Assembly (NCBI GenBank): GCA_000091165.1
Contig: FP565575.1
Coordinates: forward strand, 360,001-392,000
Length of the DNA stretch: 32,000 bases
Source of the DNA: Candidatus Methylomirabilis oxygeniifera
GTDB lineage: Bacteria; Methylomirabilota; Methylomirabilia; Methylomirabilales; Methylomirabilaceae
Direction of reading: 5' to 3'
Numbering within the stretch: the first letter of the stretch is position 1; each line of letters starts with the position of its first letter. Below, one piece after another: positions 12,597 through 24,163 of the stretch. The notes under the pieces were generated by a model that saw only the letters and a program-made list of their open reading frames with translations, did no database searches and was not told where the DNA came from. Position numbers and translations under genes: made by a program.

Positions 12597-12673
12597 CCCC
12601 TCCAGATCCCTTTGGGCTCCGGGAAAGCCCAGCCCTTTCGGGTTTCTCGCTTGCGCCCTTGGTGAGCCCGCCG
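12597..12673. repeat. Direct repeat family A, copy 1 (about 75 bp)
   Basis: gatccctttgggctccgggaaagcccagccctttcgggtttctcgcttgcgcccttggtgagccc matches copy 2 at 13994-14070, with only a few mismatches by eye. Confidence 0.85.
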
Positions 12674-12754
12674 TCGCCTTCAGAATCCATTGCGGTGTGG
12701 ACACGTTCCGATTGACCGAAGAGCAACTGCGAGAGGAATCCGGCATTGCCTGAG

Positions 12755-12850
12755 GTCATCTCCAGCACCTCACCTCTGCAATACTTAGCTCAGATCGGTC
12801 TGTTGCACCTTTTGCCGGTCATGGCCGGACGCATCCTGACAGGCGAATAG
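12755..12850 (+). pseudogene. N-terminal fragment of a PIN-like (DUF3368-type) nucleic-acid-binding protein
   Basis: Translates to VISSTSPLQYLAQIGLLHLLPVMAGRILTGE*. This resembles the conserved (D/S)xSPLIxLAKIGxLDLL N-terminus of PIN-like proteins. Only about 30 codons are present and there is no start codon. Confidence 0.4.
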
Positions 12851-12855
12851 ATTGA

Positions 12856-12993
12856 ATGGCACAGAAGCCAGAGCTTGAACTTACCTGGATCGGGAAGGAG
12901 AACCGACTGAAGCTGGGTCTGCGCATCCTGCTGGAGGACCCGGAGAAGTTCCATCACGTCCCGCTCTACATCTCGCCTTCGGTACCCGCATAG
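12856..12993 (+). pseudogene. N-terminal fragment of an N6-adenine DNA methyltransferase (LELTWIGK-type N-terminus)
   Basis: ATG at 12856 gives MAQKPELELTWIGKENRLKLGLRILLEDPEKFHH. This is the stereotyped N-terminus of type III-Mod-like or N4/N6 methylases. It then diverges (VPLYISPSVPA*) into repeat family B. Confidence 0.55.
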
Positions 12994-13020
12994 CTGCCGT
13001 CTTCCACAGAGAGACCCCCT
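12966..13020. repeat. Direct repeat family B, copy 1 (about 40-55 bp)
   Basis: ct.ca.ct.gccttcgg..cc.gcatagctgccgtc is shared with 14759-14815. In both copies the TAG inside the repeat terminates the upstream ORF. Confidence 0.6.
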
Positions 13021-13221
13021 TTCCCATAGCGCAACACACAGCTCACTAAGTTCCCACTGTTCTTGTCACCGTTGCCTAAAGCGAGTATACTTTCGTTTCG
13101 ATAACCGGATCCCCGTCAATATTGCTCGGCATGACTCCTCGCCCTCCGCGAAACCCTCCAAGTCGCTGGGCGGGCCGATTTCTCGGGGCGCTTTAACCCT
13201 CGATAGAGCCAGAGACCAAGC

Positions 13222-13839
13222 ATGACAGCAAAGTCGGTAAAATACGACGCGCGTAAAATTGAATTGCTGATACTCACGATTCGCGGGCAGAAGGTAATTT
13301 TGGACCGCGACTTGGCTGCTCTCTATGGTGTGCCCACCTTTCGATTTAATGAAGCCGTAAAGCGCAATCGCCGGCGCTTTCCCGATGACTTCGCGTTTCA
13401 GCTTACGCGTCAAGAGCTTACAGACTTGATATCGCATATTGCGATATCAAGTTCGGGTCATGGGGGCATTCGTAAACTTCCTTGGGCCTTTACGGAGCAT
13501 GGCGCGGTCATGGCCGCGAACATTCTTCGCAGCGAGCGGGCCATCCAGATGAGTGTCTTCGTTGTACGCGCCTTCGTGAAGATGCGCTCCTTGCTTGCGG
13601 CCCAAAAAGACCTGACTGGAAAGCTCGCGGAATTGGAGAAAACGCTGACTGAACGGGTTGACCTGCACGAACGGGTCATCTCCGACATTATCCAGCAAAT
13701 CATGTCTCTCCTAAGTCCTCCGTCGCTGCCTGAGCCGCCGGAAAAGCGAATTGGCTTTCATGTACGGGAAGGTCTCGCCACCTACAAGCGCCGCCGGAAC
13801 CTTGGCCTGAAGCGAATCGAAGGGAAGGTCAAGCCATGA
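13222..13839 (+). CDS. ORF6N-domain (KilA-N-like) DNA-binding protein
   Basis: IRGQKVILDRDLAALYGVPTFRFNEAVKRNRRRFPDDFAFQLT...GGIRKLPWAFTEHGAVMAANILRSERAIQMSVFVVRAFVKMR matches the ORF6N consensus as I recall it. Confidence 0.8.
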   Translation: MTAKSVKYDARKIELLILTIRGQKVILDRDLAALYGVPTFRFNEAVKRNRRRFPDDFAFQLTRQELTDLISHIAISSSGHGGIRKLPWAFTEHGAVMAANILRSERAIQMSVFVVRAFVKMRSLLAAQKDLTGKLAELEKTLTERVDLHERVISDIIQQIMSLLSPPSLPEPPEKRIGFHVREGLATYKRRRNLGLKRIEGKVKP

Positions 13840-13993
13840 TGCCGGAACAGAGAGAGGAGCTAATCCGGCCTGACGGCCCCCTGGTTGTTGCCCTCTGCTC
13901 CCCGCGTGTCCGCTCTTGGCGGACAGCGGACCGCCCTGCTGGCGTGACCGCCGCTCCACTCACGCACTTCCCCTGCATCTCGCCTCAGCCCCG

Positions 13994-14070
13994 TCCCTCC
14001 CGATCCCTTCGGGCTCCGGGAAAACCCCGCCCTTTCGGGTTTCTCGCTTGCGCCCTTGGTGAGCCCTCCG
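13994..14070. repeat. Direct repeat family A, copy 2
   Basis: gatcccttcgggctccgggaaaaccccgccctttcgggtttctcgcttgcgcccttggtgagccc is the partner of 12597-12673. Confidence 0.85.
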
Positions 14071-14184
14071 CCGGGACCAACTCATCGCCGAGATCGAAGG
14101 CAAGCTGCAGCAGCGCGTCTCGCAGAAGATGCTGTGTTCCATCCGGTGGTCGTTGACATGATTCGTAGGCTACGCTTGACAGGC

Positions 14185-14202
14185 GTTCGCAATAATGCGA
14201 AC
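14185..14202. promoter_or_regulatory. Inverted repeat GTTCGC-aataat-GCGAAC next to a TTGACA hexamer; candidate operator/promoter of the XRE gene
   Basis: The perfect 6-bp arms are separated by an AT-rich 6-mer. TTGACA lies at 14176-14181. The element sits immediately upstream of the 14205/14244 starts. Confidence 0.3.
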
Positions 14203-14204
14203 AT

Positions 14205-14576
14205 GTGGCGTATCTGACAAGAGAACGATCAGAAGACTTGACGATGTCTAAGAGTAGGAAATCGGCCACCACGGATGCCGTGGAAATTCTCCACCGCCGC
14301 TATTACGAAGGTAGATCTGAACGGCTCGCGGCGCTTGAGGAAGCGCGCGTCAATGAGAGCGTGGCCCGCAAAATTGCCGCTCTGCGCGTCCAGGCCGGTC
14401 TGTCGCAGCGTCAACTGGCCAAACTTGTCGGCACTACGGCGTCGGTGATCTGCCGGTTGGAAGATGCTGACTACGAAGGCCATTCGCTGGCCATGTTGAA
14501 CCGGATCGCTGCCGCGCTGAACCAGCGAGTGGAAATTCGCTTCGTGCAAACTCGCAAACGGCTTCAACACGCCTGA
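14205..14576 (+). CDS. XRE-family helix-turn-helix protein, HigA-like antitoxin architecture (probable start at ATG 14244)
   Basis: KIAALRVQAGLSQRQLAKLVGTTASVICRLEDADYEGHSLAMLNRIAAALNQRVEIRF is a typical Cro/C1 HTH with an antitoxin-type C-terminus. Confidence 0.75.
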   Translation: MAYLTRERSEDLTMSKSRKSATTDAVEILHRRYYEGRSERLAALEEARVNESVARKIAALRVQAGLSQRQLAKLVGTTASVICRLEDADYEGHSLAMLNRIAAALNQRVEIRFVQTRKRLQHA

Positions 14577-14594
14577 GCGCTTCTGGAAAGGCCC

Positions 14595-14786
14595 ATGACA
14601 GATCCGACGATCACCCGCCTTCACTACAAGGCTGACATCAAACTAACCGGATCACTTGAGCCGCCGTTCATCGAGGCCATCCGCGGGGCAGTCCTCAAAC
14701 TGGCAGGCGAGCAGATTTACGGGCACAGAAGCCAAAATTCAAGCTCGCGCTCCCCGTTCTGCACCTTGCCTTCGGCGCCAGCATAG
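14595..14786 (+). CDS. Hypothetical 63-aa ORF, possibly the truncated 5' end of a lost gene
   Basis: The ORF runs into repeat family B copy 2 and ends ...CTLPSAPA*. This parallels the ...YISPSVPA* end of the methyltransferase fragment. Confidence 0.25.
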   Translation: MTDPTITRLHYKADIKLTGSLEPPFIEAIRGAVLKLAGEQIYGHRSQNSSSRSPFCTLPSAPA

Positions 14787-14815
14787 CTGCCGTCCCCCAA
14801 GTTTGGAGAGTTCCC
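14759..14815. repeat. Direct repeat family B, copy 2
   Basis: ctgcaccttgccttcggcgccagcatagctgccgtccccc... is the partner of 12966-13020. Confidence 0.6.
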
Positions 14816-14977
14816 CTTCCTCTGTGGAAAATTATCCACCTTTATTCCAGCCCCTCTTTTGTTATTGAGAGATAGAACTGTTTGGAATATTCTACCCTTG
14901 ATTGAAGGGATCAAGGCGTCGATCGCTTATCGGCTTCGTGTGGCCAGCGGTTCCATGCCGTCGAACCAATCGGGTAA

Positions 14978-15154
14978 AGTCGAAATAAGGAAAGATTGGA
15001 GGACAGGGTTGAGCGTATCCCGTCGGCAAAGGAGGATGATTCCGAAGCCGATGTCTTGGGGCTCGAATACGAAATAGACCGGCGCGTATACCGCCTGTAC
15101 GGCCTGACCAAGGAGAAAACCGCCATTGTTGAGGGTTCACAAAAACGAAGATGA
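14978..15154 (+). pseudogene. C-terminal fragment of a DNA methyltransferase or type IIG R-M protein
   Basis: The frame opens after the TAA at 14975 and has no ATG. It translates to ...KERLEDRVERIPSAKEDDSEADVLGLEYEIDRRVYRLYGLTKEKTAIVEGSQKRR*. The EIDxxVYxLYGLTxEExxIVE tail is characteristic of Eco57I/PglX-type methylase C-termini. Confidence 0.55.
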
Positions 15155-15585
15155 CGTATTTTTCCATATGTCGAGGACCGTTACACGCGTCTGTTAATCA
15201 GTGCTCAACGAGTTTTTGCAGATGCGCGAAGCCTGAACCCCAGGACCAATTCCTCGGACGGCTTACGAATATCGAACACGGCAGCAGCGTTAGTATCCGC
15301 CCGATCGAGCTCACTTAAGAGTCGCTAATAGAAACAGCACACTGATCTCATTTTTCTTAGTGGTGGATATCAGTTGCGAGTTGATCGGACGCGTCAGCTC
15401 AAGCAGGCTTGGTTTGGACCTCTGCCAAGTGTAGAATAAAGGTTGGCCAACGCCCCGTGCATGGCGCCAGCCGAAAATCATAGAATGAGATATACTGTCT
15501 CGCCCGTTAAGCGAGTAAAATGATTGCTTAGTCTTATGGCGCTGCCCGCGATCAACGGGGCGCCATGAAAGGAGGATCTGGCGAA

Positions 15586-16239
15586 ATGGGTGCCTGCAAG
15601 CTTTGTTCTGAACTCGAATCACGCACATCTGCATGGAACCAGCCGCTATTCGAGTCACCGAATTTTGTGGCACTTCCGTCGCTGGGCGCGCTCATTGAGG
15701 GATGGATTCTTCTGGTGCCCAAGCGCCATTTCATCTCATTCGGCGCGGTGCCGGGTTCTATGCTTGCTGAGATGAACGAGTTTAAGGGGTTCCTCTGCTC
15801 GGTGCTGGGTCAGCGTTATGGAACGGCTACTGCGTTTGAACATGGCCCGATCGCGGCAGGTCGAACCGTAGGGTGCGGGGTCGATCATGCACATCTCCAC
15901 CTCGTCCCGCTTCTATTTGATCTCTTGGCTGAAGTATCGCCATTATTGCCAAGCGGTGTCAGGTGGGCGAACGCTGGGATTGAGGAATGCCAGGACGCGT
16001 ACGGTCGAGGGCAAGACTATTTGTATCTTGAGCAACCAATCTGCTCAGGCTGGATCGCCACCCACGACCAATTTGGAAGCCAGCTCTTCCGCCGAGCCAT
16101 AGCGACACGAATTGGTGTGCGAGATCAATACAACTGGCGCGAGTACGAGCAGTTGCCAACCGTGATGGCCACCATGCAGATGGTTCGGGCCTTGGTCTCA
16201 ACCGGAGCCGCTGATGGCCTATCTGGTTCAGCAGCGTAA
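15586..16239 (+). CDS. HIT-superfamily (histidine triad) nucleotide hydrolase/transferase with a C-terminal extension of about 100 aa
   Basis: N-terminal CKLC. ...GWILLVPKRH.... Histidine triad VDHAHLHLVP (codons 15886-15900). AAAGGAGGA RBS lies about 10 nt before the ATG at 15586 (the ORF track starts at 15565). Confidence 0.8.
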   Translation: MGACKLCSELESRTSAWNQPLFESPNFVALPSLGALIEGWILLVPKRHFISFGAVPGSMLAEMNEFKGFLCSVLGQRYGTATAFEHGPIAAGRTVGCGVDHAHLHLVPLLFDLLAEVSPLLPSGVRWANAGIEECQDAYGRGQDYLYLEQPICSGWIATHDQFGSQLFRRAIATRIGVRDQYNWREYEQLPTVMATMQMVRALVSTGAADGLSGSAA

Positions 16240-16806
16240 ATGAATCCGCCCAAAATGGACGACGAGGCTGACGGTCGCGAACGTGGGGAATGGCAGTCCA
16301 AGTATACCGATCCCGTAGCTCGCCGGTGGATTCGGATCGAGTCCGCCTACTTGGCGATCCTCCTTATCATTGCGCCGAGCGCAATGTTGGCATTGTGGCT
16401 GGGATACCCTCAGTATTGGTTGCAGCTATCCGACCAAAAATATCGAACGCTGTTTTTGTGGGGGCTCGCCTGGATAGCTGGGACATTCGGAGGGACGCTT
16501 TTCGACATCAAGTGGCTGTATCGTTCTGTTGCGAGACAGTTCTGGCACATGGATCGTCGCCCGTGGCGATTTTTCACGCCCCATATCTCTGGCGGGCTGG
16601 CTTTTATCGTAATCGCATTAATCTCCTCCGGTCTAGTGCAAGTATTTGACCGCCACGCCATCGAGTCTCCGTCGCTCGTACTCGGTGTAGCGTTTCTTGC
16701 CGGGTATTTTGCCGATAGTACGCTTGCAAAGCTTGCGGAAATTGCCCATACGCTTTTTGGCCAGTCTACTGGAAAGAAAGACATATCCGAGAAGAAAGAC
16801 GCATAG
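16240..16806 (+). CDS. Four-TM membrane protein of unknown family
   Basis: The ATG directly abuts the upstream TAA (gcgTAAATGaat). Hydrophobic helices are IESAYLAILLIIAPSAMLALWLGY, TLFLWGLAWIAGTFGGTLF, ISGGLAFIVIALISSGLV and LVLGVAFLAGYFADSTLA. The N- and C-termini are charged. Confidence 0.7.
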   Translation: MNPPKMDDEADGRERGEWQSKYTDPVARRWIRIESAYLAILLIIAPSAMLALWLGYPQYWLQLSDQKYRTLFLWGLAWIAGTFGGTLFDIKWLYRSVARQFWHMDRRPWRFFTPHISGGLAFIVIALISSGLVQVFDRHAIESPSLVLGVAFLAGYFADSTLAKLAEIAHTLFGQSTGKKDISEKKDA

Positions 16807-16820
16807 CCAGGCGTACCCAA

Positions 16821-17651
16821 ATGAGAGATGCCTCTCCTTTGCGATATCCGGGTGGAAAATGGCGGATCGCGCCGTTCTTCGAGCGAGTCCTTCTGCTCAA
16901 CCGATTGGCTGGTAGCGATTATTTTGAGCCGTATGCGGGCGGTGCGAGCCTCGCATTGAGCCTTCTGCTCGCGAATCGTGTTACCGAGATCTACCTCAAT
17001 GACTTAGATCCTGCTGTCCATGCGTTTTGGTATGTCGTTCTCATGCGAAATAAGGATTTGAGGGAGCTTATCGAGTCGACCGCGGTCACGCCTGAAGAGT
17101 GGATTCGCCAAAAGGAAATCTACAAGAAAGGCCGTTCGGCCGGCATGCTGGCTTTCGGATTCGCAACTTTTTTCCTAAATCGCACAAATCATTCCGGTAT
17201 TATGAACGGAGGGATGATAGGCGGAAAGGCGCAGGAAGGAACATGGAAGTTGGATGCCCGTTTCAACAAGCCGGAATTGCTGAGACGGATTAAACGGATT
17301 GGTTCATATAAGAAGCGTGTCCACCTGTCGCAACTCGATGCTATCGACTTTCTGAACCATACCAAGCCATCGCGAGATAGCCTCGTCTACTTAGACCCGC
17401 CGTATTACAACGCAGGGGCAAAATTATATCTCAATGCGTATGGCCCGGGTGATCATGCGGCTGTACGTAACGCGGTGAGACAACTGGATGCCCCATGGAT
17501 CATTTCCTACGACGATGTTCCTGAAATTAGAACACTGTACAGGCCAGTGCGGTCGCGACGCTTAAGGCTCCTACACACGGCTCGATCTTTGAGGCTCGGT
17601 AGAGAAGTTCTATTTTTCTCATCCCGGTTAAGAATTCCGGTCTACCGTTGA
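16821..17651 (+). CDS. Dam-family (D12 class) N6-adenine DNA methyltransferase
   Basis: YPGGKWRIAPFF. SAM-binding FEPYAGGASLA. YLNDLDPAVHAFW. FFLNRTNHSG. Catalytic DPPY (17394-17405). C-terminal SYDDVPEIRTLY. Confidence 0.88.
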   Translation: MRDASPLRYPGGKWRIAPFFERVLLLNRLAGSDYFEPYAGGASLALSLLLANRVTEIYLNDLDPAVHAFWYVVLMRNKDLRELIESTAVTPEEWIRQKEIYKKGRSAGMLAFGFATFFLNRTNHSGIMNGGMIGGKAQEGTWKLDARFNKPELLRRIKRIGSYKKRVHLSQLDAIDFLNHTKPSRDSLVYLDPPYYNAGAKLYLNAYGPGDHAAVRNAVRQLDAPWIISYDDVPEIRTLYRPVRSRRLRLLHTARSLRLGREVLFFSSRLRIPVYR

Positions 17652-17664
17652 GGATCAATAGAGG

Positions 17665-20310
17665 ATGGCCAAACAACGTCAGGGAGCACAAGCGAGCGTA
17701 GGTGCACCCAGGCGTCAACGAACTGCGCATTTCCAATTCCTGCCACGCAGAGATGTGCTTCTCATTGCAGACGCAGGCCCGATGGAAATTCCGGCCGGCC
17801 AAGTTTCTTCCAACCAGGTTGGCCGGAAAGCTCTGGGACTGAGTGTGCTGCCAATTGAATGGACGCCGCCATTCTTCGTAGTTTCGGCCCAATGCTTCAA
17901 CCGGCAGATTCCTCTTGATACAGTGAACGATTGGATCTGGGTTTCTCACGCTCGGCTCGCGTTCATGCTCAGCGCACCTCTCATGATTCGTTCGAGTGGA
18001 ACCACTGAAACAATGCGCGATCGAGGCAGTCTTATCTCCGAATTATGCACATCAAGAGACGTTGCGGCATTAGTTGGGCAGTTGCGAGCGAAGACCCCGG
18101 ATTCATCTCGCGCGCAAGTGCACTGGATTGTTCAGCAGTATGTAAAGCCGCAACGAAAAGGTCACCTATCAAACGAGAGGCACGTCAGTAGGGAGCCGCG
18201 CGACTGGGCTATAGAGTTTGAGCCAACAGACGATTGTCAAGGACATGCTGTTTCCATCGGAATCCGAACGTGGCGAGAGGGGCTGGAGCCTTCGTTGGAT
18301 TTGAGCTGCGCCTCTGAGACCGAGATTACCCTTCGGCTCAGAGAAGTCGCGAAGTGGGCACTCCAGTTTTCGTCGCGGATCCACTTCGAGTGGGTTTGGG
18401 ATGGAAAAAGACTGTGGATTGTCCAAGCCGATGCTGCCGAGCTGGCCCTCGGGATAGACCCAACTGCTGTATTGCCTGCCAAAATCCAAATGGCCCAGAT
18501 TGGGCGGCTGCAAGTGTTTCGTCTTGCGAGTGCCAATGACTACAAGCGTTACGGCAAGCTTCGTAACGGAGCTCTCTACAAGAAATTCGGGTATGGCATG
18601 CCTCCGTTCTTTCTTGCCGATGATCGTTCCGCGATTACCGATCTCCTCTCCGGCAAAATCTCTCCAGAGATAGAGCAGGACCTCAAAGAGCTAACAAAGC
18701 GCCCACTAATAATCCGTACCGATGGCGCGAATATCCCGCAAGAAAAACGCGAGATGTTGCCTCGCAGTGATCCGCTTGCAACATTTGACGAAGCCAAGCA
18801 GTGGGTCTTAAATGACTTTAAAATCGAGATTAACAAACTTGAATTGGTGGACCACGGCCTGTGCCTGGTTGCCCATCATTTCATTCCATCAGTGGCCTCA
18901 GCATGGGCGCGGGCCGAGCCGGGGAAACAAATTGTCCGAATCGAGTCGCTCTGGGGAATCCCCGAAGGGCTGTATTGGTATTCTCACGATACTGTTGAAG
19001 TGGACACGCTGGCGGTGAAGCTCAAGCGTTTGAGAACCTTCACCGGATGTTCTTTTGAAGTGTCAGAGCGCTTACGTTACAAAGGGGCGTTTGTTGCTGC
19101 TGACGAAAAGGGCAAATGGGCACCAGCCTCAGTTCGGCCTCCACACGACTGGCGCCTTAGTATCAAGAAGCAAGAATGGCTGTTTGAAATCGCACATACT
19201 ACCAGGCGCATCGCCGAGGCTGAGAAAGATCCTGTGGCCGTGATGTGGTTCGTGGACAACCACCCTGAGGCCACTCGGCATAGAGTGCTGCCGTGGTATC
19301 ACTGCAAGTCAAAACTGATCGGTATTCCCAGAGCCGCACCTCGTCGAAAGATCACCACCGCGAAGGATTTCTACGTCAAGAACGAAGCCGATTGGCACAG
19401 GTTGCAACAGGAGCTACATTCGGGCGCGCGAATTGAGCGGGTCGTAGTGGAACCAGCCGACGCTGCGCTCATTCGAAATCCGACCTTTGCCAGGGAACTC
19501 GCCCAACTTGCCGCAACGCGCAAGTTCGTCATCGTGTTGTCCGGTGGAATACTCTCGCACGCATATTACATGCTCACCAAGAGTGGTGCCCAGGTCGAGT
19601 GCATCGACTTGTTCGGAGTCGATGAGGATCGTGCCGACTACAACAAGATTGTCCGAGACAAGATTCCAGAAATCATAGCGAAGCGCGGGGAGCGAGCCAA
19701 AATCATTCACCTGCGGGGCGACGCGCTGGTTACGGCGTTAAGGCAGAAGTTAGTAGAGGAAGCATTCGAGGCCGTAGACGCTAGGTCAGGAGACGACTTA
19801 GTCGGAGAGCTTGCCGATGTGAGCGAGGTCATTGATGCCTTGTGCCGTGCCCTGAAAGTTTCCGACCCTCATTTGAAAGCGGTCCAACTGGAGAAGCGCC
19901 AAAAGAGAGGAGGATTCGAAAAAGGGATCATGTTAGAGAGAACGACGACGCCCCACTCAATACAGCAATCTGTTTCGGATCTTCCAGAAGACAGGTTGCA
20001 ATTTGCGTTGGAGACGATTCCACCCCAGGTAATCGAGCATCCGGCTGACATTCCCACGGTGCCATTGTACAGGCGTCCAGATCTGCGTCAAGTTGAACAG
20101 CAAATAGAGAAGTTATTCGCTTTCGCGACTGAAATTAATAAACTTGGAAACCTGCTGAAGGCGACTCTTGATTTCACTCTACCGATCAGTCCGGGAATTG
20201 AACGAGAGTTCACTCTAACAGTCGAATTGCGGCGATCAGGCAGCGCGCTACGGGGAAACATTCGAGTACGCTGTATACCATCCCAGCTCCACATCGATTT
20301 TCCTGATTGA
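17665..20310 (+). CDS. 881-aa multidomain protein: PEP-synthase/PPDK-type ATP-grasp, a second related module, a PEP-utilizer swivel phospho-His-like segment, a MazG/PRA-PH-like NTP pyrophosphohydrolase and an unknown C-terminal domain
   Basis: VGRKALGLSVLPIEWTPPFFVV resembles GGKAxNLxxLxxxGxPVPxGFxI. LMIRSSGTTE resembles AVRSSAxxED. HFEWVWDGKRLWIVQAD resembles DIEWAxxxGxLYILQxRP. IESLWGIPEGL resembles the GLGExxV motif. VIVLSGGILSHAYYMLTKSGAQV (His632, 19558-19560) resembles GGxTSHAAIxARxxGxP. YNKIVRDKIPEII...LVEEAFEAVDA...LVGELADVSEVIDAL...KRQKRGGFEKGIML matches the all-alpha NTP-PPase EExxE/ExxD pattern. Confidence 0.75.
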   Translation: MAKQRQGAQASVGAPRRQRTAHFQFLPRRDVLLIADAGPMEIPAGQVSSNQVGRKALGLSVLPIEWTPPFFVVSAQCFNRQIPLDTVNDWIWVSHARLAFMLSAPLMIRSSGTTETMRDRGSLISELCTSRDVAALVGQLRAKTPDSSRAQVHWIVQQYVKPQRKGHLSNERHVSREPRDWAIEFEPTDDCQGHAVSIGIRTWREGLEPSLDLSCASETEITLRLREVAKWALQFSSRIHFEWVWDGKRLWIVQADAAELALGIDPTAVLPAKIQMAQIGRLQVFRLASANDYKRYGKLRNGALYKKFGYGMPPFFLADDRSAITDLLSGKISPEIEQDLKELTKRPLIIRTDGANIPQEKREMLPRSDPLATFDEAKQWVLNDFKIEINKLELVDHGLCLVAHHFIPSVASAWARAEPGKQIVRIESLWGIPEGLYWYSHDTVEVDTLAVKLKRLRTFTGCSFEVSERLRYKGAFVAADEKGKWAPASVRPPHDWRLSIKKQEWLFEIAHTTRRIAEAEKDPVAVMWFVDNHPEATRHRVLPWYHCKSKLIGIPRAAPRRKITTAKDFYVKNEADWHRLQQELHSGARIERVVVEPADAALIRNPTFARELAQLAATRKFVIVLSGGILSHAYYMLTKSGAQVECIDLFGVDEDRADYNKIVRDKIPEIIAKRGERAKIIHLRGDALVTALRQKLVEEAFEAVDARSGDDLVGELADVSEVIDALCRALKVSDPHLKAVQLEKRQKRGGFEKGIMLERTTTPHSIQQSVSDLPEDRLQFALETIPPQVIEHPADIPTVPLYRRPDLRQVEQQIEKLFAFATEINKLGNLLKATLDFTLPISPGIEREFTLTVELRRSGSALRGNIRVRCIPSQLHIDFPD

Positions 20311-20329
20311 TCAGGTTGAATCACCCGCT

Positions 20330-20506
20330 ATGCCTTCAAACTTCGTGGCCCATGCGGAACTCCAGAGTAAAACCGAGCAGTTCTGCTGCGAGGTACTTGC
20401 ATGGCGGAAGCCGCTCTATACATTGGCCGACAACGCGAACGGCCACCTGTTCAGGATGGGCGCTCAACCGTTACGCCCAGACGATGTGTCTCTGTTGCTC
20501 AGATAA
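20330..20506 (+). CDS. 58-aa hypothetical ORF just downstream of the large gene (below the ORF-track cutoff)
   Basis: ATG at 20330, TAA at 20504-20506. Translates to MPSNFVAHAELQSKTEQFCCEVLAWRKPLYTLADNANGHLFRMGAQPLRPDDVSLLLR. I recognise no family, so it may be a gene remnant. Confidence 0.2.
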   Translation: MPSNFVAHAELQSKTEQFCCEVLAWRKPLYTLADNANGHLFRMGAQPLRPDDVSLLLR

Positions 20507-20579
20507 AATGCACGGGAGTCACCCCTTGGGAGCTTAGGGCGAGGCAGCCGGATGGTATTTGTGATAAGGTACATGCTAT

Positions 20580-21104
20580 ATGGATATCCTGTCACACGGG
20601 CTGTGGGGTGGGATTGCGTTCGGACGGACGAACCGGCGGAGTTTCGGTTTAGCGTTTTCGTTCGGTGTTCTCCCGGATCTTGTGCCGTTCGGCCCCTTTC
20701 ATCTCAGCGTTCTGCTCGGGCTTGCTCAGCGTCCGCATTTTGGTCCCGAACCCCCTGATCCGTCCCTCTTCCCGGATTACGTCCATCGCGCGTACAGTGT
20801 CACGCATAGCCTGGTCGTCTTCCTCTTAGCATTCGCGCTCCTGTGGATGGTATTCCGAAAGCCGATCTGGGAGTCCACCGCCTGGGGGCTCCATATCCTC
20901 TTTGACATCTTCACGCATTCTTTCCGATTTTTTCCAACCCCGTTTCTCTGGCCGATTTCGGATTCTAAGGTCAACGGCCTGCACTGGGGAACACCGGAGA
21001 TCTTCTTCTCGAACGTTGCGTGTCTTGTACTGGTCTATACATGGTTCCTGTATCGCCGGTGGAGAACGCGGAAGGATCCAATACGGGCGTTTCTTCGAAA
21101 ATAG
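20580..21104 (+). CDS. Membrane-bound metal-dependent hydrolase, YdjM/DUF457-like
   Basis: MDILSHGLWG start, THSL, and HILFDIFTH...FLWP motifs are spread across hydrophobic helices, as in YdjM-type proteins. Confidence 0.55.
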   Translation: MDILSHGLWGGIAFGRTNRRSFGLAFSFGVLPDLVPFGPFHLSVLLGLAQRPHFGPEPPDPSLFPDYVHRAYSVTHSLVVFLLAFALLWMVFRKPIWESTAWGLHILFDIFTHSFRFFPTPFLWPISDSKVNGLHWGTPEIFFSNVACLVLVYTWFLYRRWRTRKDPIRAFLRK

Positions 21105-21152
21105 TATTCAGCAATCAGCGCTTAGCCGTCTGCTTCAGACAAACCCCCCGGA

Positions 21153-21173
21153 CCCCCCTTTCATAAAGGGGGG
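21153..21173. terminator. GC-rich hairpin (CCCCCCTTT-cat-AAAGGGGGG) 3' of the YdjM-like gene; a related imperfect copy lies at about 21196-21216
   Basis: A perfect 9-bp stem with a 3-nt loop sits 49 nt after the stop. No U-tract follows. It looks like a REP-type palindromic element. Confidence 0.3.
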
Positions 21174-21305
21174 GATACTCATACGTTCCCTTACTTCCCC
21201 ATTTTGTAAAGGGGGATTGACGGGGTTGTATGCGTCGTGGTGCGGCTGTGACCGCATGGAAGGTTGCTTTGGAGGTAGGCTGGAATCTTGGTTGATGGCG
21301 GGTTA

Positions 21306-21614
21306 TCAGAGATCTTCTGGACGAATCGGTGATGCCGCATCCGCGCCGACCACCGTCGTCCACTCTCGAACATGCCATTTCGTCACGACCCCGTGTGCGA
21401 CGTACGGGTCGGCGGCGGCAAATGCCTCGGCCACCGCAGGTGAAGAACCACGGAAGAGCAGCACGACGCCATCCGAGGGATTGGCGAGCGCACCGCCGAG
21501 GATCAGTTCTCCACGCGCAACAGCTCGGTGCGCAAGCTCCAGATGCGCCTTACGAAAGGGCTGTCGCCGCTCAAGGTAATCGGGGGCGACGTCGTAGAAC
21601 AGTAGATAATGCAT
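21306..21614 (-). CDS. YciI-family protein
   Basis: MHYLLFYDVAPDYLERRQPFRKAHLE...GELILGGAL...AFAAADPYVAHGVV fits the YciI-like fold signature. The likely start is the internal ATG (MHYLL) rather than 21665. Confidence 0.75.
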   Translation of the reverse strand: MHYLLFYDVAPDYLERRQPFRKAHLELAHRAVARGELILGGALANPSDGVVLLFRGSSPAVAEAFAAADPYVAHGVVTKWHVREWTTVVGADAASPIRPEDL

Positions 21615-21723
21615 GAGGCATCCTTCCTGTGATGTACCCCTATGAAGATGCACAACCCGCCTCATCCGGGTGGGGTGCTCCGCAAGCTCCGCCTTTTTGA
21701 CTGCGGAAGGTCACATCGAGCTG

Positions 21724-22056
21724 CTATAGAAATTCGATCTGACCATACATTTCCTCCGCATCCAATACCTGATGGATCAACATCAACCCACGAATGATGT
21801 CTGAGACTGGCGTTTGCTGCGGCGCGTACACGATCCCCCTGTGATCCACGCCCGCAGCATGTAAACGCAGGAAGTCGTCGTCCTGTGTGAAGATCACCCG
21901 ACCTTCGTTCCGGGCTCGTCGTACATGCTCCTCATCAGGAGCGCCAAGCATTCCCGCTTCCAGCACCGTGAGTACGTCCACTCCACGTTGGCGCAGCCCC
22001 CGCACCACAGCCTTTGCAACATGCTCATCGGCGCAGAACCTAATCTTCTGCCTCAT
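21724..22056 (-). CDS. DUF5615-family PIN-like putative toxin
   Basis: IRFCADEHV...VVRGLRQRGVDVLTV...VIFTQDDDF pattern. It overlaps the upstream DUF433 gene by 17 nt, giving a typical DUF433/DUF5615 pair. Confidence 0.7.
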   Translation of the reverse strand: MRQKIRFCADEHVAKAVVRGLRQRGVDVLTVLEAGMLGAPDEEHVRRARNEGRVIFTQDDDFLRLHAAGVDHRGIVYAPQQTPVSDIIRGLMLIHQVLDAEEMYGQIEFL

Positions 22057-22351
22057 GCAGCTTCTGCTTCAGCTTCGAGGGGGCGCTCTCCCTCAGAGCC
22101 TCAATGAATGCCTTGCTCTCTTCAATGTCGTGGTCGATCTCTGATCGATGGTCGTAGTAGTAGGCCAGTGCCGCATAGACATCGGCAAGGGTCAAGTCGT
22201 ACTCAGAAACAATCTCATCAACGCTCTTGCCGATCCGCTCATGCCAAATCACAATGTTTTGTACCGTAATGCGATGCCCTGCAATACGAGGCTTCCCGCC
22301 CGCTATTCCAGGGGTCACCTCGATATGTTGGTCTAGCGTTTTCGTAGCCAT
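22040..22351 (-). CDS. DUF433-domain putative antitoxin
   Basis: IEVTPGIAGGKPRIAGHRITVQNIVIWHERIGKSVDEIVSEYDLTLADVYAALAYY is the canonical DUF433 core. Confidence 0.8.
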   Translation of the reverse strand: MATKTLDQHIEVTPGIAGGKPRIAGHRITVQNIVIWHERIGKSVDEIVSEYDLTLADVYAALAYYYDHRSEIDHDIEESKAFIEALRESAPSKLKQKLHEAED

Positions 22352-22548
22352 ACTATTTCTCCCTTACTCATTTTTATGTGTCGCCTAACATGAACTTTTG
22401 CGGATTTCTTCTACCAATGTAAGCAGTCTATTTGATACAAGCGGAGTGTCAAGGTATTTTTGGATGGAAACGCGGCGGCCAGGAAAAGGCTTTCCAGAGC
22501 GACGGCGCAAACTAAGAGAGACCAGCAAGTACCATGACCAATGGAAGT

Positions 22549-22624
22549 TGGTGGAGGGTAGGGGATTCGAACCCCTGGCCTCGGCGTTGCGAACGCCGCG
22601 CTCTCCCAACTGAGCTAACCCCCC
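22549..22624 (-). tRNA. tRNA-Ala (anticodon CGC), CCA encoded
   Basis: The reverse complement folds as a cloverleaf: GGGGGGT-TA-GCTC-AGTTGGGA-GAGC-G-CGGCG-TTCGCAA-CGCCG-AGGCC-AGGGG-TTCGAAT-CCCCT-ACCCTCC-A-CCA. It has the G3:U70 alanine identity pair, anticodon loop TTCGCAA and a TPsiC loop GTTCGAATC. Confidence 0.95.
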
Positions 22625-22722: not shown

Positions 22723-23463
22723 TTAGAAGATCCCAGCGATCGATTTTGCCAGACCTTCCGTCAAGGAGGGCAACGCCTCTTCCAGCTTCAAATTCACCTG
22801 ATTAGCCGTCGAAGCGATGCGGGTCTGATAGCGCTTCCTTTCCGTCGTGGTTCGGCTGGTCTGTCTGATGGCGGAGCCGCTCCCCTGCTGAAGATGGGAC
22901 TGTACGGTCTGCTCGACCGCCTCTTTGGATTTTTCTGAGATCATCAGGTCGGTGACGATGGTATAGGTGACGTCTTTCACTAAGGAGCCAGCGATCATCT
23001 CCGCCCCGACGCCCACCAAGCCGCCGATGCCCGCGCCATACAGCGCGCCCGAGCCGCCACCTGCGGCGCCTCCGATCAGTGCCCCGCCCAGGGCGCCCGC
23101 GAATGTGCCGCCGTATCCTGCAGCAACGGCTGATCGTAATGCCGACGGATCGGCCTGTCCCACATAGAGGATGTTACCCTGCAAAATATAGAACGCCTCT
23201 TTTGGGTTCGTAGTGACCTTGTAGCCGTTTGTCTGCAGCCTGCTGATGATAAGAGGCCTGATATCAAGCTCTTTATCTGAGGTGTTCTTGATATCGACAA
23301 AGATCGTCCGCTCCGCCTGATTCTCGATATCCAGGAAGATGGTGTCGGACATCTTATTTTCGACCTTGAGGTCTTTCTTTTCCAGGGACACCTGCATCGC
23401 CGCGCAACTGGCCAAGAGGACGCCAATCAGCACCACGCCACTACACTTCAGTATCTTCATCAT
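22723..23463 (-). CDS. traT: TraT-family outer-membrane lipoprotein (surface exclusion / complement resistance protein homologue)
   Basis: Lipobox LLASC after MMKILK. It is colinear with my recollection of F-plasmid TraT (KKDLKVENKMSDTIFL...IKNTSDKEL...NGYKVTTNPKEAFYILQ...VKDVTYTIVTDLMISE...YQTRIASTANQVNLKLEEALPSL...LAKSIAGIF). GGAGGTG RBS lies before the ATG at 23463. Confidence 0.85.
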   Translation of the reverse strand: MMKILKCSGVVLIGVLLASCAAMQVSLEKKDLKVENKMSDTIFLDIENQAERTIFVDIKNTSDKELDIRPLIISRLQTNGYKVTTNPKEAFYILQGNILYVGQADPSALRSAVAAGYGGTFAGALGGALIGGAAGGGSGALYGAGIGGLVGVGAEMIAGSLVKDVTYTIVTDLMISEKSKEAVEQTVQSHLQQGSGSAIRQTSRTTTERKRYQTRIASTANQVNLKLEEALPSLTEGLAKSIAGIF

Positions 23464-23536
23464 CGGGCCGTCACCTCCTGTAAAGAACCTATACGCATGG
23501 GAACGACGACGAACGCTCGCAATGACCCCGCGAAGC

Positions 23537-24163
23537 TTACCTGGACTGGTGAGCAACGCGCAAGAGATCCTCGGTGGTGTAGATCGACTCCAACTCATAC
23601 CCGTTTTTCAGCAGTTCTTCGCGGCCGCCCTCCTGCCGGTCCACAAGCGCCAGCGCCTTGACGATCTGGAAGCCGGCGTGCAGCGCGCCGTCGATCGCCT
23701 TGAGGGTAGAGGCCCCTGTCGTGACGACATCCTCAATAATCACAACTCTCGCGCCCGGCCGCTCGAATCCCTCCACCCATTTCTGGGTGCCATGTCCTTT
23801 CGGCTCCTTTCGGACGCTGAAGGCTTGGATCGGCGTTCCTTGAAGCGCGCTGTGATAGGCGACGGCGTAGGCGATCGGGTCCGCGCCGAGCGTGAGTCCT
23901 CCGACGGCGGTGATCCGTATGTCATCCTTTTGTTCAGTGGCCTTGATCCGCTCGAAGAAGAGCCGGCCGAGGAGCGGCATCGCCTCCGACATGAACGTTG
24001 TCTGCTTACAGTTGATGTAGTAACGGCTCTTTCGGCCGGAGGCCAGGGTAAAGACCGGCTCGGTGCTGTGCTGGAAGGAGTGCTGAACCAGCAGTCTCAG
24101 GAGCTTGTCCTCGCACGCCTTAAGCGGGGATTGGTCTCTTGGGGTATCCACGGGGGTGAGCAT
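23537..24163 (-). CDS. pyrE: Orotate phosphoribosyltransferase
   Basis: FTLASGRKSRYYINCK... and the PRPP-binding loop VVIIEDVVTTGAST. The start was chosen at ATG 24163 (MLTPV). The longer track ORF begins at a TTG overlapping the msrA stop. Confidence 0.88.
   Translation of the reverse strand: MLTPVDTPRDQSPLKACEDKLLRLLVQHSFQHSTEPVFTLASGRKSRYYINCKQTTFMSEAMPLLGRLFFERIKATEQKDDIRITAVGGLTLGADPIAYAVAYHSALQGTPIQAFSVRKEPKGHGTQKWVEGFERPGARVVIIEDVVTTGASTLKAIDGALHAGFQIVKALALVDRQEGGREELLKNGYELESIYTTEDLLRVAHQSR

Follow-up and report, generated by a model that had tools for sequence, protein, structure and literature searches.

The open reading frame (ORF) at 17665-20310 on the forward (+) strand of a 32,000-nucleotide (nt) stretch of Candidatus Methylomirabilis oxygeniifera DNA (assembly GCA_000091165.1, contig FP565575.1, positions 360,001 to 392,000; hereafter "the window," to which unlabeled coordinates refer) encodes an 881-amino-acid (aa) protein in which a dikinase-like part is joined to a MazG-type nucleoside triphosphate (NTP) pyrophosphohydrolase domain and a C-terminal beta domain. 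It is the last of four packed genes, with gaps of 0-14 nt, that encode a HIT-like protein, a small membrane protein, an adenine methylase, and the large protein itself. We give an even chance to the reading that this is a bifunctional enzyme in a mobile, nucleotide-targeting operon that acts against phages or mobile elements by an abortive-infection type of response. The domains of the large protein all come from known superfamilies, and the combination, the degenerate second ATP-grasp module, and the operon appear to be undescribed in the sources searched. The original prediction, which was made from the letters of the window, concerned the large gene and overlooked the conserved operon, which is the best functional clue. 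The four genes and the parts of the large protein are as follows.

15565-16239, + strand: HIT-like hydrolase/transferase, 224 aa (Pfam HIT, family profile, conservation)
16240-16806, + strand: small membrane protein, 188 aa (hydropathy, conservation)
16821-17651, + strand: D12-class (Dam-like) N6-adenine DNA methyltransferase, 276 aa (Pfam, PADLOC, NCBIfam)
17665-20310, + strand: 881-aa multidomain protein, with dikinase-like part, MazG domain, and beta domain (ATG start)
17737-18489, + strand: module 1, PPDK_N/RPH-type ATP-grasp, aa ~25-275 (Foldseek, invariant residues, hhalign to PpsA)
18502-19350, + strand: module 2, degenerate ATP-grasp-like copy, aa ~280-562 (hhalign, conservation)
19357-19614, + strand: putative swivel phospho-histidine domain, aa ~565-650 (motif register, model)
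19630-19950, + strand: MazG/PRA-PH-type all-alpha NTP pyrophosphohydrolase domain, aa ~656-762 (profile, model)
20065-20283, + strand: C-terminal five-strand antiparallel beta-sheet domain, aa ~801-873 (model)

The coordinates, length, and ATG start of this ORF were all borne out, full-length homologues number in the hundreds, and every motif quoted in the original prediction sits at its stated residues. The first series comprises VGRKALG (52-58), IRSSGT (108-113), FEWVWDG (241-247), and IVQAD (252-256), and the second YGKLRN (296-301), IRTDG (350-354), LWGIPEGL (429-436), and VMWFVDN (526-532); the C-terminal half holds GGILSH (627-632), KIVRDKIPEII (661-671), VEEAFEA (697-703), and GELADVSEV (714-722). 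Because the ORF and these motifs were found and are kept in homologues, both the ORF and its motif content can be taken as real and conserved. Conservation was evaluated over 73 full-length homologues (32-100% identity) from 80 genome loci. In this set K55, R109, E242, Q254, H632, E698, E699, E702, E715, D718, and E721 are invariant or at least 97% conserved, which exceeds chance by far. On average, the N-terminal modules are at least as well conserved as the MazG domain.

The ORF product is 100% identical to a database entry from Candidatus Methylomirabilis oxygeniifera, which NCBI names "nucleoside triphosphate pyrophosphohydrolase"; databases label the protein by its MazG part only. An initial sequence search returned 541 relatives, the best 120 of which are mostly full length with 47-100% identity, and when 1.84 billion cluster representatives were searched with a profile, 684 of them (clusters at 50% identity) reached E <= 1e-30. 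The single large-protein sequence has no match in Pfam, NCBIfam, or PADLOC, and searches of PDB sequences with phmmer and a family hidden Markov model gave chance matches only (ribosomal S7e, Cif). The architecture proposed in the original prediction is nevertheless supported, because structure backs its ATP-grasp and both structure and sequence back its MazG domain, as described below. Its author knew of no characterised protein with this domain order, and the databases and literature searched likewise yielded no solved structure, characterised protein, or paper with a dikinase-MazG architecture; the ATP-grasp and MazG assignments are backed, and the architecture was not matched to any well-characterised enzyme family.

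For module 1, structure prediction supports a dikinase-superfamily ATP-grasp fold. The AlphaFold2 model (43 homologues in the alignment) is confident over aa 20-640, with predicted local distance difference test (pLDDT) values of 80-93 over aa 20-430. The top PDB matches found by Foldseek are rifampin phosphotransferase (RPH; 5hv2, 5hv1, 5hv3, 5hv6, and 5fbs) and HpeI (9goj), with E 1e-7 to 2e-6 and probability 1.00, and generic ATP-grasp enzymes rank next; against the isolated ATP-binding domain, the template modeling (TM) score normalised to the target reaches 0.53. The catalytic set is complete, comprising K55 (in GxK), R109 (RSS), E242 (FEW), and Q254 (VQAD). In RPH and PPDK, Lys, Arg, and Glu residues bind the ATP phosphates and Mg2+ (PMC4844700), and on the basis of their motifs K55, R109, and E242 correspond to these residues. 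Alignment to authentic E. coli PpsA using hhalign is co-linear at VRSS (P 0.022) and at DIEW..IVQARP (P 0.0047). At the gathering score, Pfam PPDK_N (PF01326) does not match the window protein (the best score anywhere was 17.2 bits, against a cut-off of 27), and weak matches occur in seven of 43 family members (best E 0.029). The PPDK_N-type ATP-grasp claimed in the original prediction is thus upheld by the Foldseek matches to RPH and HpeI together with the conserved catalytic residues.

A second ATP-grasp copy had been placed at about aa 290-460. The second motif series is indeed present, but the module runs to about aa 560 rather than 460, and the copy is degenerate. It keeps K298 and R351, with M527 standing where module 1 has E242, and has invariant residues of its own (D353, R367, H404, H441, D442, D447, and K473). 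Because the Lys and Arg are kept but Met replaces the Glu, we infer that module 2 is a degenerate copy that would bind something phosphorylated instead of cleaving ATP. Global alignment of modules 1 and 2 using hhalign failed, with similarity evident in local alignment only. In long variants of the protein, weak PPDK_N matches fall in module 2 (aa 414-523, equivalent to profile positions 196-308). No acceptor domain of known type, either the phosphoenolpyruvate (PEP)/pyruvate TIM barrel or the rifampin (RIF)-binding domain, was detected in the large protein. The place of such a domain is taken by the degenerate module, followed by MazG after the His segment, and module 2 is a candidate acceptor-binding domain.

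The segment after module 2 carries GGILSH, ending at His632 (codon 19558-19560), where the original prediction had placed a mobile phospho-histidine domain. The motif is present and the His conserved (G627, L630, S631, and H632 are each at least 97% conserved), and hhalign pairs the His of GGxLSH exactly with the catalytic His of E. coli PpsA, PtsI, and PtsP, although weakly (P 0.011-0.046). The model places a strand, the GG loop, a helix, and a strand here. The swivel domain itself is putative, with motif register as its basis, and of all parts of the architecture it has the weakest support.

The MazG/PRA-PH assignment is firmer. A search with a profile built on aa 648-881 yields 6217 proteins, among which are many standalone 106-115-aa PF01503/PF03819 proteins that match at E 1e-28 to 1e-31 and share 41-54% identity (most 44-50%) with aa 657-760. 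Among the 43 family members, Pfam identifies PRA-PH in 22, MazG-like in five, and MazG in four, and a distant homologue scores 21.6 bits against a cut-off of 21.3 in the MazG-superfamily Pfam test. The metal-binding motif ExxE(12-28)ExxD is intact, with E698, E699, E702, E715, D718, and E721 all invariant. When aa 648-881 were modeled separately (pLDDT 84.8), the MazG domain came out as four helices with pLDDT >90. Foldseek of this model gave MazG, PRA-PH, and YpjD structures as the relevant matches (5ie9, 1y6x, 1yxb, 3crc, and 2gta), at probability 0.5-0.9 but with weak E-values (0.3-0.9). Taken together, the profile matches, the PRA-PH counts, and the four-helix model support the original assignment, and MazG-type NTP pyrophosphohydrolase activity is predicted. 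The ~120 aa after this domain, described in the original prediction as "unknown sequence," have no convincing structural match in the PDB or among viral proteins, and the model shows the five-strand beta-sheet. The beta domain is present throughout the family yet divergent, with D806 invariant and R808, R857, and Q874 near-invariant. In the viral structure database BFVD, H6X4U7 of Klebsiella phage RaK2 (93 aa) superposes on part of the C-terminal model (target-normalised TM 0.82, root-mean-square deviation 2.9, probability 1.00); the match presumably covers the MazG-like helices, and H6X4U7 is probably a phage MazG-like protein.

Some variation within the family was also recorded. One subfamily of 950-1024-aa proteins (P0295, P0296, P0298, P0305, P0353, and others) matches the profile up to the MazG domain only; its C-terminal region differs and has no Pfam assignment, and the proteins are ~100 aa longer overall. 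In several metagenome-assembled genomes from long reads (loci L050, L086, L087, and L084), the large gene is frameshifted or truncated beside intact partner genes, which could reflect errors in sequencing or the true decay of a gene that is costly to keep. On long contigs, short proteins of the "MazG + C-terminus" type were considered as natural split-gene forms and rejected, as they are frameshifted or decayed copies.

Turning to the operon partners, the HIT-like protein has an N-terminal CxxC, an FEHG motif, an invariant HxHxH (H108/H110/H112), and a family-specific C-terminal extension of ~100 aa with an SQFFRR motif. Its Pfam HIT score (21.7 bits) is just over the cut-off of 21.5, and the family profile matches HIT/Hint proteins in the PDB at E 8e-7 to 5e-6; on these sequence grounds it belongs to the HIT superfamily, in the Hint/phosphoramidase branch. 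The membrane gene, whose start codon directly adjoins the HIT stop codon, encodes a protein with three to four predicted transmembrane helices and invariant D11, K91, D105, R106, R110, and D159. This protein has no Pfam or PDB relative, and a single Bestrophin-like match (E 0.005) was discarded, as it was not reproduced in other members. The methylase has the motifs RYPGGK, EPYAGG, and DPPY (the last two conserved) and matches Pfam MethyltransfD12 (PF02086; 2.9e-14, 53.8 bits against a cut-off of 22), TIGR00571 dam (1.3e-14), and the PADLOC models PD-Lambda-5_B (8e-107) and MTase_II (8e-94).

The association of these genes is widespread. Based on tblastn, all four occur in ~70 of the 80 genome loci that encode a large-protein homologue, which include Nitrospirota, Acidobacteriota, Desulfobacterota, Burkholderiales, Xanthomonadales, Acinetobacter, Clostridia, Bacteroidota, Campylobacterota, and others. 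The HIT, membrane, and large genes are always adjacent, with gene order shuffled between loci and the membrane gene always lying between the HIT gene and either the large gene or the methylase in the loci compared. When approached from the HIT side, 39 metagenome loci with enough downstream sequence carry the membrane gene in 38, the large gene in 37, and the methylase in 34 cases. The methylase varies in position (before, inside, or after the trio, on either strand). A distant clade of ~810-aa proteins (28% identity; Caulobacter, Mesorhizobium, and Neorhizobium) keeps the HIT-membrane-large trio, in one case (L085) with a different methylase, a 618-aa class I enzyme. Because the trio is constant while the methylase has moved, been swapped, or is missing, the core of the cassette comprises the HIT-like protein, the membrane protein, and the dikinase-MazG protein, and DNA adenine methylation is a frequent yet exchangeable partner. 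The named hosts of distant-clade loci L085-L089 (a Caulobacter plasmid, Neorhizobium, and a metagenome) are all Alphaproteobacteria. Alphaproteobacteria carry the housekeeping adenine methylase CcrM, and a clade there lacking a Dam-type cassette methylase would fit reliance on host N6-methyladenine (m6A).

In an Agathobaculum sp. (Clostridia) locus, L066:3375-4907, the methylase and HIT protein are fused in one 510-aa ORF, a Rosetta-stone-type hint that suggests joint action. Related Clostridia loci (e.g., L069) have the methylase and HIT as separate genes. Some main-clade cassettes have an additional 370-470-aa protein beside the methylase with an N-terminal ParB/Srx-like DGNRR motif. These proteins have no Pfam matches, and the copies found using BLAST, which match one another at E 1e-11 to 1e-42, are as follows.

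L032:3381-4493, - strand: DGNRR protein
L035:9573-10967, - strand: DGNRR protein
L041:8637-10052: DGNRR protein
L044:8715-10115: DGNRR protein
L079:8708-9982: DGNRR protein

A protein at L033:7754-9004 has a similar DGNRR motif and no BLAST relationship to the other copies, and is a possible member.

The genomic setting across loci fits a horizontally moving host-side conflict module, with a moderate defence-island signal. Among 140 flanking proteins there are five integrases, ~8 transposases, three resolvases, two extra methylases, a type I restriction subunit, HipA, and Mokosh MkoA. Individual loci adjoin HipA/helix-turn-helix (HTH) pairs, a type IV secretion system (T4SS) coupling protein, an AbiV-like HEPN protein, and MmeI-like and AbiEii genes, and the distribution of the family across phyla is patchy. 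A phage origin of the cassette was rejected, as the large protein had no match among 50,697 INPHARED phage records or in IMG/VR.

The closest known relative in structure is RPH, in which the ATP-grasp is followed by a substrate domain and a swivel His domain and a pyrophosphoryl-His intermediate is formed (PMC4844700). RPH (5FBS, 5HV1, 5HV2, and 5HV6) is the best fold match, has the same ATP-grasp Lys/Arg/Glu residues, and shares with the large protein the sequence of ATP-grasp, middle domain, and His-bearing segment (PMC4844700). By analogy, the predicted chemistry would be conversion of ATP to AMP, Pi, and a phosphorylated acceptor via the His. The two proteins differ in that they are only 10-14% identical, the RIF-binding domain is replaced by the degenerate ATP-grasp-like module, the His segment is followed by extra MazG and beta domains, and the gene lies in a HIT/membrane/methylase operon. 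PEP synthase (PEPS) and PPDK (PF01326 + PF00391 + PF02896) resemble the large protein in that VRSS, DIEW..IVQARP, and GGxxxH are co-linear with PpsA, and a pyrophosphoryl/phospho-His swivel mechanism is likely shared. Unlike them, the large protein has no PEP/pyruvate TIM barrel, its Pfam matches are below threshold, and its His segment follows a second ATP-grasp-like module. HpeI (9GOJ), of the hydroxyphenylethanone dikinase HpeHI, is the second-best fold match (TM 0.53 over 345 columns). HpeHI shows that the dikinase superfamily phosphorylates diverse non-pyruvate acceptors (PMC12167813), but it is a catabolic, two-subunit enzyme without the nucleotide-hydrolase fusion or the methylase, HIT, and membrane partners.

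Other comparisons concern the MazG domain and the methylase. Standalone MazG/PRA-PH "COG4997-type" proteins (106-115 aa) share ExxE...ExxD and PF01503/PF03819 with the large protein, but they are single-domain, whereas the copy here is fused behind the dikinase and followed by the beta domain. In the PUA-Calcineurin-CE-HAD defence system, Dam-derived N6-methyl-deoxyadenosine monophosphate (m6-dAMP) triggers depletion of deoxynucleoside triphosphates (dNTPs), and MazG-like domains are predicted to be NTP-depleting effectors in systems often tied to N6-adenine methylases (bioRxiv 10.64898/2026.01.15.699771). The nucleotide-depleting logic (for the cassette, as proposed) and the N6-adenine methylase link are held in common with this system and the MazG variants. 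The cassette differs in having no PUA, calcineurin-like, or HAD component, and its dikinase, HIT, and membrane proteins have no counterpart there. PD-lambda-5 is a compact "RM+Abi" system (Vassallo et al. 2022, PMC9519451) with which the methylase subfamily (PD-Lambda-5_B) is the only thing in common, given that PD-Lambda-5_A matches none of the cassette proteins. Classical restriction-modification differs in that no endonuclease partner was found in the cassette using Pfam, NCBIfam, PADLOC, or fold search.

In the mechanism that we propose, module 1 would split ATP, release AMP, and transfer pyrophosphate to His632, where it would be trimmed to phosphate as in RPH, and the swivel would carry the phosphate from His632 to an acceptor bound in module 2 or in the adjoining MazG site. 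RPH has its acceptor domain between the ATP-grasp domain and the His domain (PMC4844700). This position corresponds to module 2 here, and the PEPS/PPDK acceptor position (after the His) corresponds to MazG. Because both candidate acceptor sites are nucleotide-binding folds, a nucleotide is the most economical choice of acceptor, and most likely the right one. MazG (NTP to NMP and PPi) and the Hint-type HIT protein (acting on NMP-X or P-N bonds) could then interconvert or drain nucleotides; alternatively, a phosphorylated nucleotide may be made and turned over. Killing or arrest would probably fall to the small membrane protein as effector, and the methylated DNA of the host could serve as a self mark or as the source of the trigger. 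The roles put forward in the original prediction, which turned on a phosphorylated nucleotide-like molecule or on dNTP depletion, are likewise hypothetical.

Several observations weigh against this nucleotide-targeting defence operon. None of the 43 family members matches PF00391 (PEP-utilizers), and a profile of the His domain only found no PEP-utilizer matches in the PDB. The duplication signal between modules 1 and 2 is weak (local hhalign E 1.7e-4, probability 50%), and the functional link between the dikinase and MazG is assumed from their fusion only. The large, HIT, and membrane proteins match none of the 5027 PADLOC models (PADLOC-DB 2.0), and no nuclease, DNA-binding, or reader domain was found in the four cassette proteins using Pfam, NCBIfam, PADLOC, and fold search. 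At two distant-clade loci (L088 and L089) the trio has no nearby methylase, so methylation is not obligatory, and most flanking genes across the loci are ordinary housekeeping genes, so defence-island enrichment is modest.

We consider it unlikely that the cassette instead operates on DNA, in the manner of BREX or restriction, with the methylase marking self and the large protein (possibly with the HIT protein) modifying unmethylated DNA ends or bases so that replication is blocked without a nuclease. There is precedent in BREX and Pgl, which pair a methylase with phospho-enzymes and no nuclease, and some HIT enzymes (e.g., aprataxin) act on DNA ends. Such a system would account for the tight linkage of the methylase in the main clade, its membership of the PD-Lambda-5_B/type II subfamily, its replacement by another type in L085, its fusion to HIT in L066, and the subclade with a ParB/Srx-like DGNRR protein beside it. 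However, the four proteins have no detected domain for binding, reading, or cutting DNA, MazG and Hint-type HIT proteins are nucleotide rather than DNA enzymes, and a trio without a nearby methylase would be intolerable for self/non-self restriction unless a host methylase substitutes. It is highly doubtful that the cassette provides resistance or immunity to a toxic small molecule, for example, a nucleotide or peptide-nucleotide antibiotic, whereby the dikinase inactivates the toxin by phosphorylation, the HIT protein cleaves phosphoramidates, MazG removes toxic NTP analogues, and the products leave the cell through the membrane protein. The nearest structures are the antibiotic-inactivating RPH and the catabolic phenol dikinase HpeI (PMC4844700, PMC12167813). 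The mobile, patchy distribution and the placement of the HIT protein in the Hint/phosphoramidase branch also agree with such a role. HIT enzymes confer immunity to microcin C-like compounds. Yet this leaves the conserved DNA adenine methylase and the methylase-HIT fusion unexplained, a nucleotide-binding-type fold stands where RPH has its RIF-binding domain, and the membrane protein has no transporter signature.

Equally improbable, in our view, is housekeeping nucleotide sanitation or salvage beside a mobile Dam-type methylase, for example, clearing N6-methyl-(d)adenine nucleotides to prevent their misincorporation. The linkage to an N6-adenine methylase, the presence of three nucleotide-centred enzymes, and the naming of the large protein in databases as a "house-cleaning" NTP pyrophosphatase are compatible with this, but an ATP-consuming dikinase of 881 aa and a dedicated membrane protein seem excessive for the task, the trio survives without the methylase, and a patchy, mobile distribution speaks against housekeeping. 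We regard it as extremely improbable that the protein is no genuine fusion enzyme but just an oversized MazG enzyme whose dikinase-like portion serves as a catalytically inactive scaffold. The 650 N-terminal aa have no Pfam or PDB sequence match and database annotation covers the MazG part alone, as would be expected for a scaffold; against it are the retention of K55, R109, E242, Q254, and H632 over 73 sequences down to 32% identity, N-terminal conservation that is at least equal to that of the MazG domain, and the strong fold match to active dikinases.

If the reading as a bifunctional, nucleotide-targeting enzyme is correct, its significance lies partly in the choice of acceptor. Dikinases of the PEPS/PPDK/RPH type act on pyruvate, glucans, phenols, or rifampin. 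The NTP-pyrophosphohydrolase fusion and the nucleotide-binding-type module in place of the substrate domain point to nucleotide substrates, and hence to a new acceptor class. A more specific version, which we judge to be quite unlikely, is that the cassette represents an unrecognised, methylome-linked class of phage defence with a His-swivel dikinase at its centre. ATP would be used to phosphorylate or pyrophosphorylate a nucleotide, maybe m6-dAMP released from the phage-degraded chromosome, which would have been methylated by the Dam-type enzyme of the cassette or, where the cassette has no methylase, by host CcrM or Dam. The fused MazG and the HIT partner would recycle the dikinase product, and the result would be either a futile cycle that drains ATP and dNTPs or a nucleotide signal that gates the membrane protein, in both cases leading to abortive infection. 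If true, this would give the PEPS/PPDK family its first dikinase that acts on a nucleotide acceptor. Nucleotides derived from the methylome and effectors of the MazG type are recent arrivals in the defence field. Given the constant HIT and membrane partners, the usual methylase, and the mobile DNA, the cassette is a specific candidate for a novel defence system. The family is large (~680 clusters at 50% identity, in many phyla) and annotated by its smallest domain only. Cultured carriers include Burkholderia, Paraburkholderia, Achromobacter, Acinetobacter, Dyella, and Luteimonas, among them Burkholderia cenocepacia NCTC13227 (L056), Paraburkholderia bannensis (L045), Achromobacter aestuarii (L024), an Acinetobacter sp. 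(L048), and Dyella marensis (L037), and the invariant K55, H632, E698/E699, and HIT H110 are ready targets for mutation.

In the window, the cassette lies within a stretch of lower GC content (13000-22624; 52-57%, compared with 60-67% in the flanks) that ends at a tRNA gene. No tRNA-Ala-derived direct repeats that could mark an island border were found in the window. The other features of the stretch and its edge are as follows.

13222-13839: ORF6N gene, in the lower-GC stretch
14205-14576: Xre HTH regulator gene, in the lower-GC stretch
20580-21104: YdjM-like gene, in the lower-GC stretch
21306-21665, - strand: YCII gene, in the lower-GC stretch
21724-22351, - strand: DUF433/DUF5615 (PIN-like) pair, in the lower-GC stretch
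22549-22624, - strand: tRNA-Ala(CGC), at the end of the lower-GC stretch
22723-23598, - strand: TraT-like lipoprotein gene, just outside the lower-GC stretch

Upstream of the cassette, an open stretch of 58 codons at 14978-15154 (+), ending ...EYEIDRRVYRLYGLTKEKTAIVEG*, resembles the decayed C-terminal tail of a methyltransferase or restriction-modification protein. Its sole match in the plasmid database is an annotated DNA methyltransferase from Planktothrix (E 3e-4), and this methylase remnant suggests that the site earlier held other restriction-modification genes. A dispersed repeat occurs at 12598-13006, upstream of the ORF6N gene, and again at 13995-14799, around the Xre HTH gene, with blocks of 79 nt (92%), 48 nt (75%), and 47 nt (81%) in the same order in both copies. 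It could be a cassette boundary, a miniature inverted-repeat transposable element (MITE), or a duplicated promoter.

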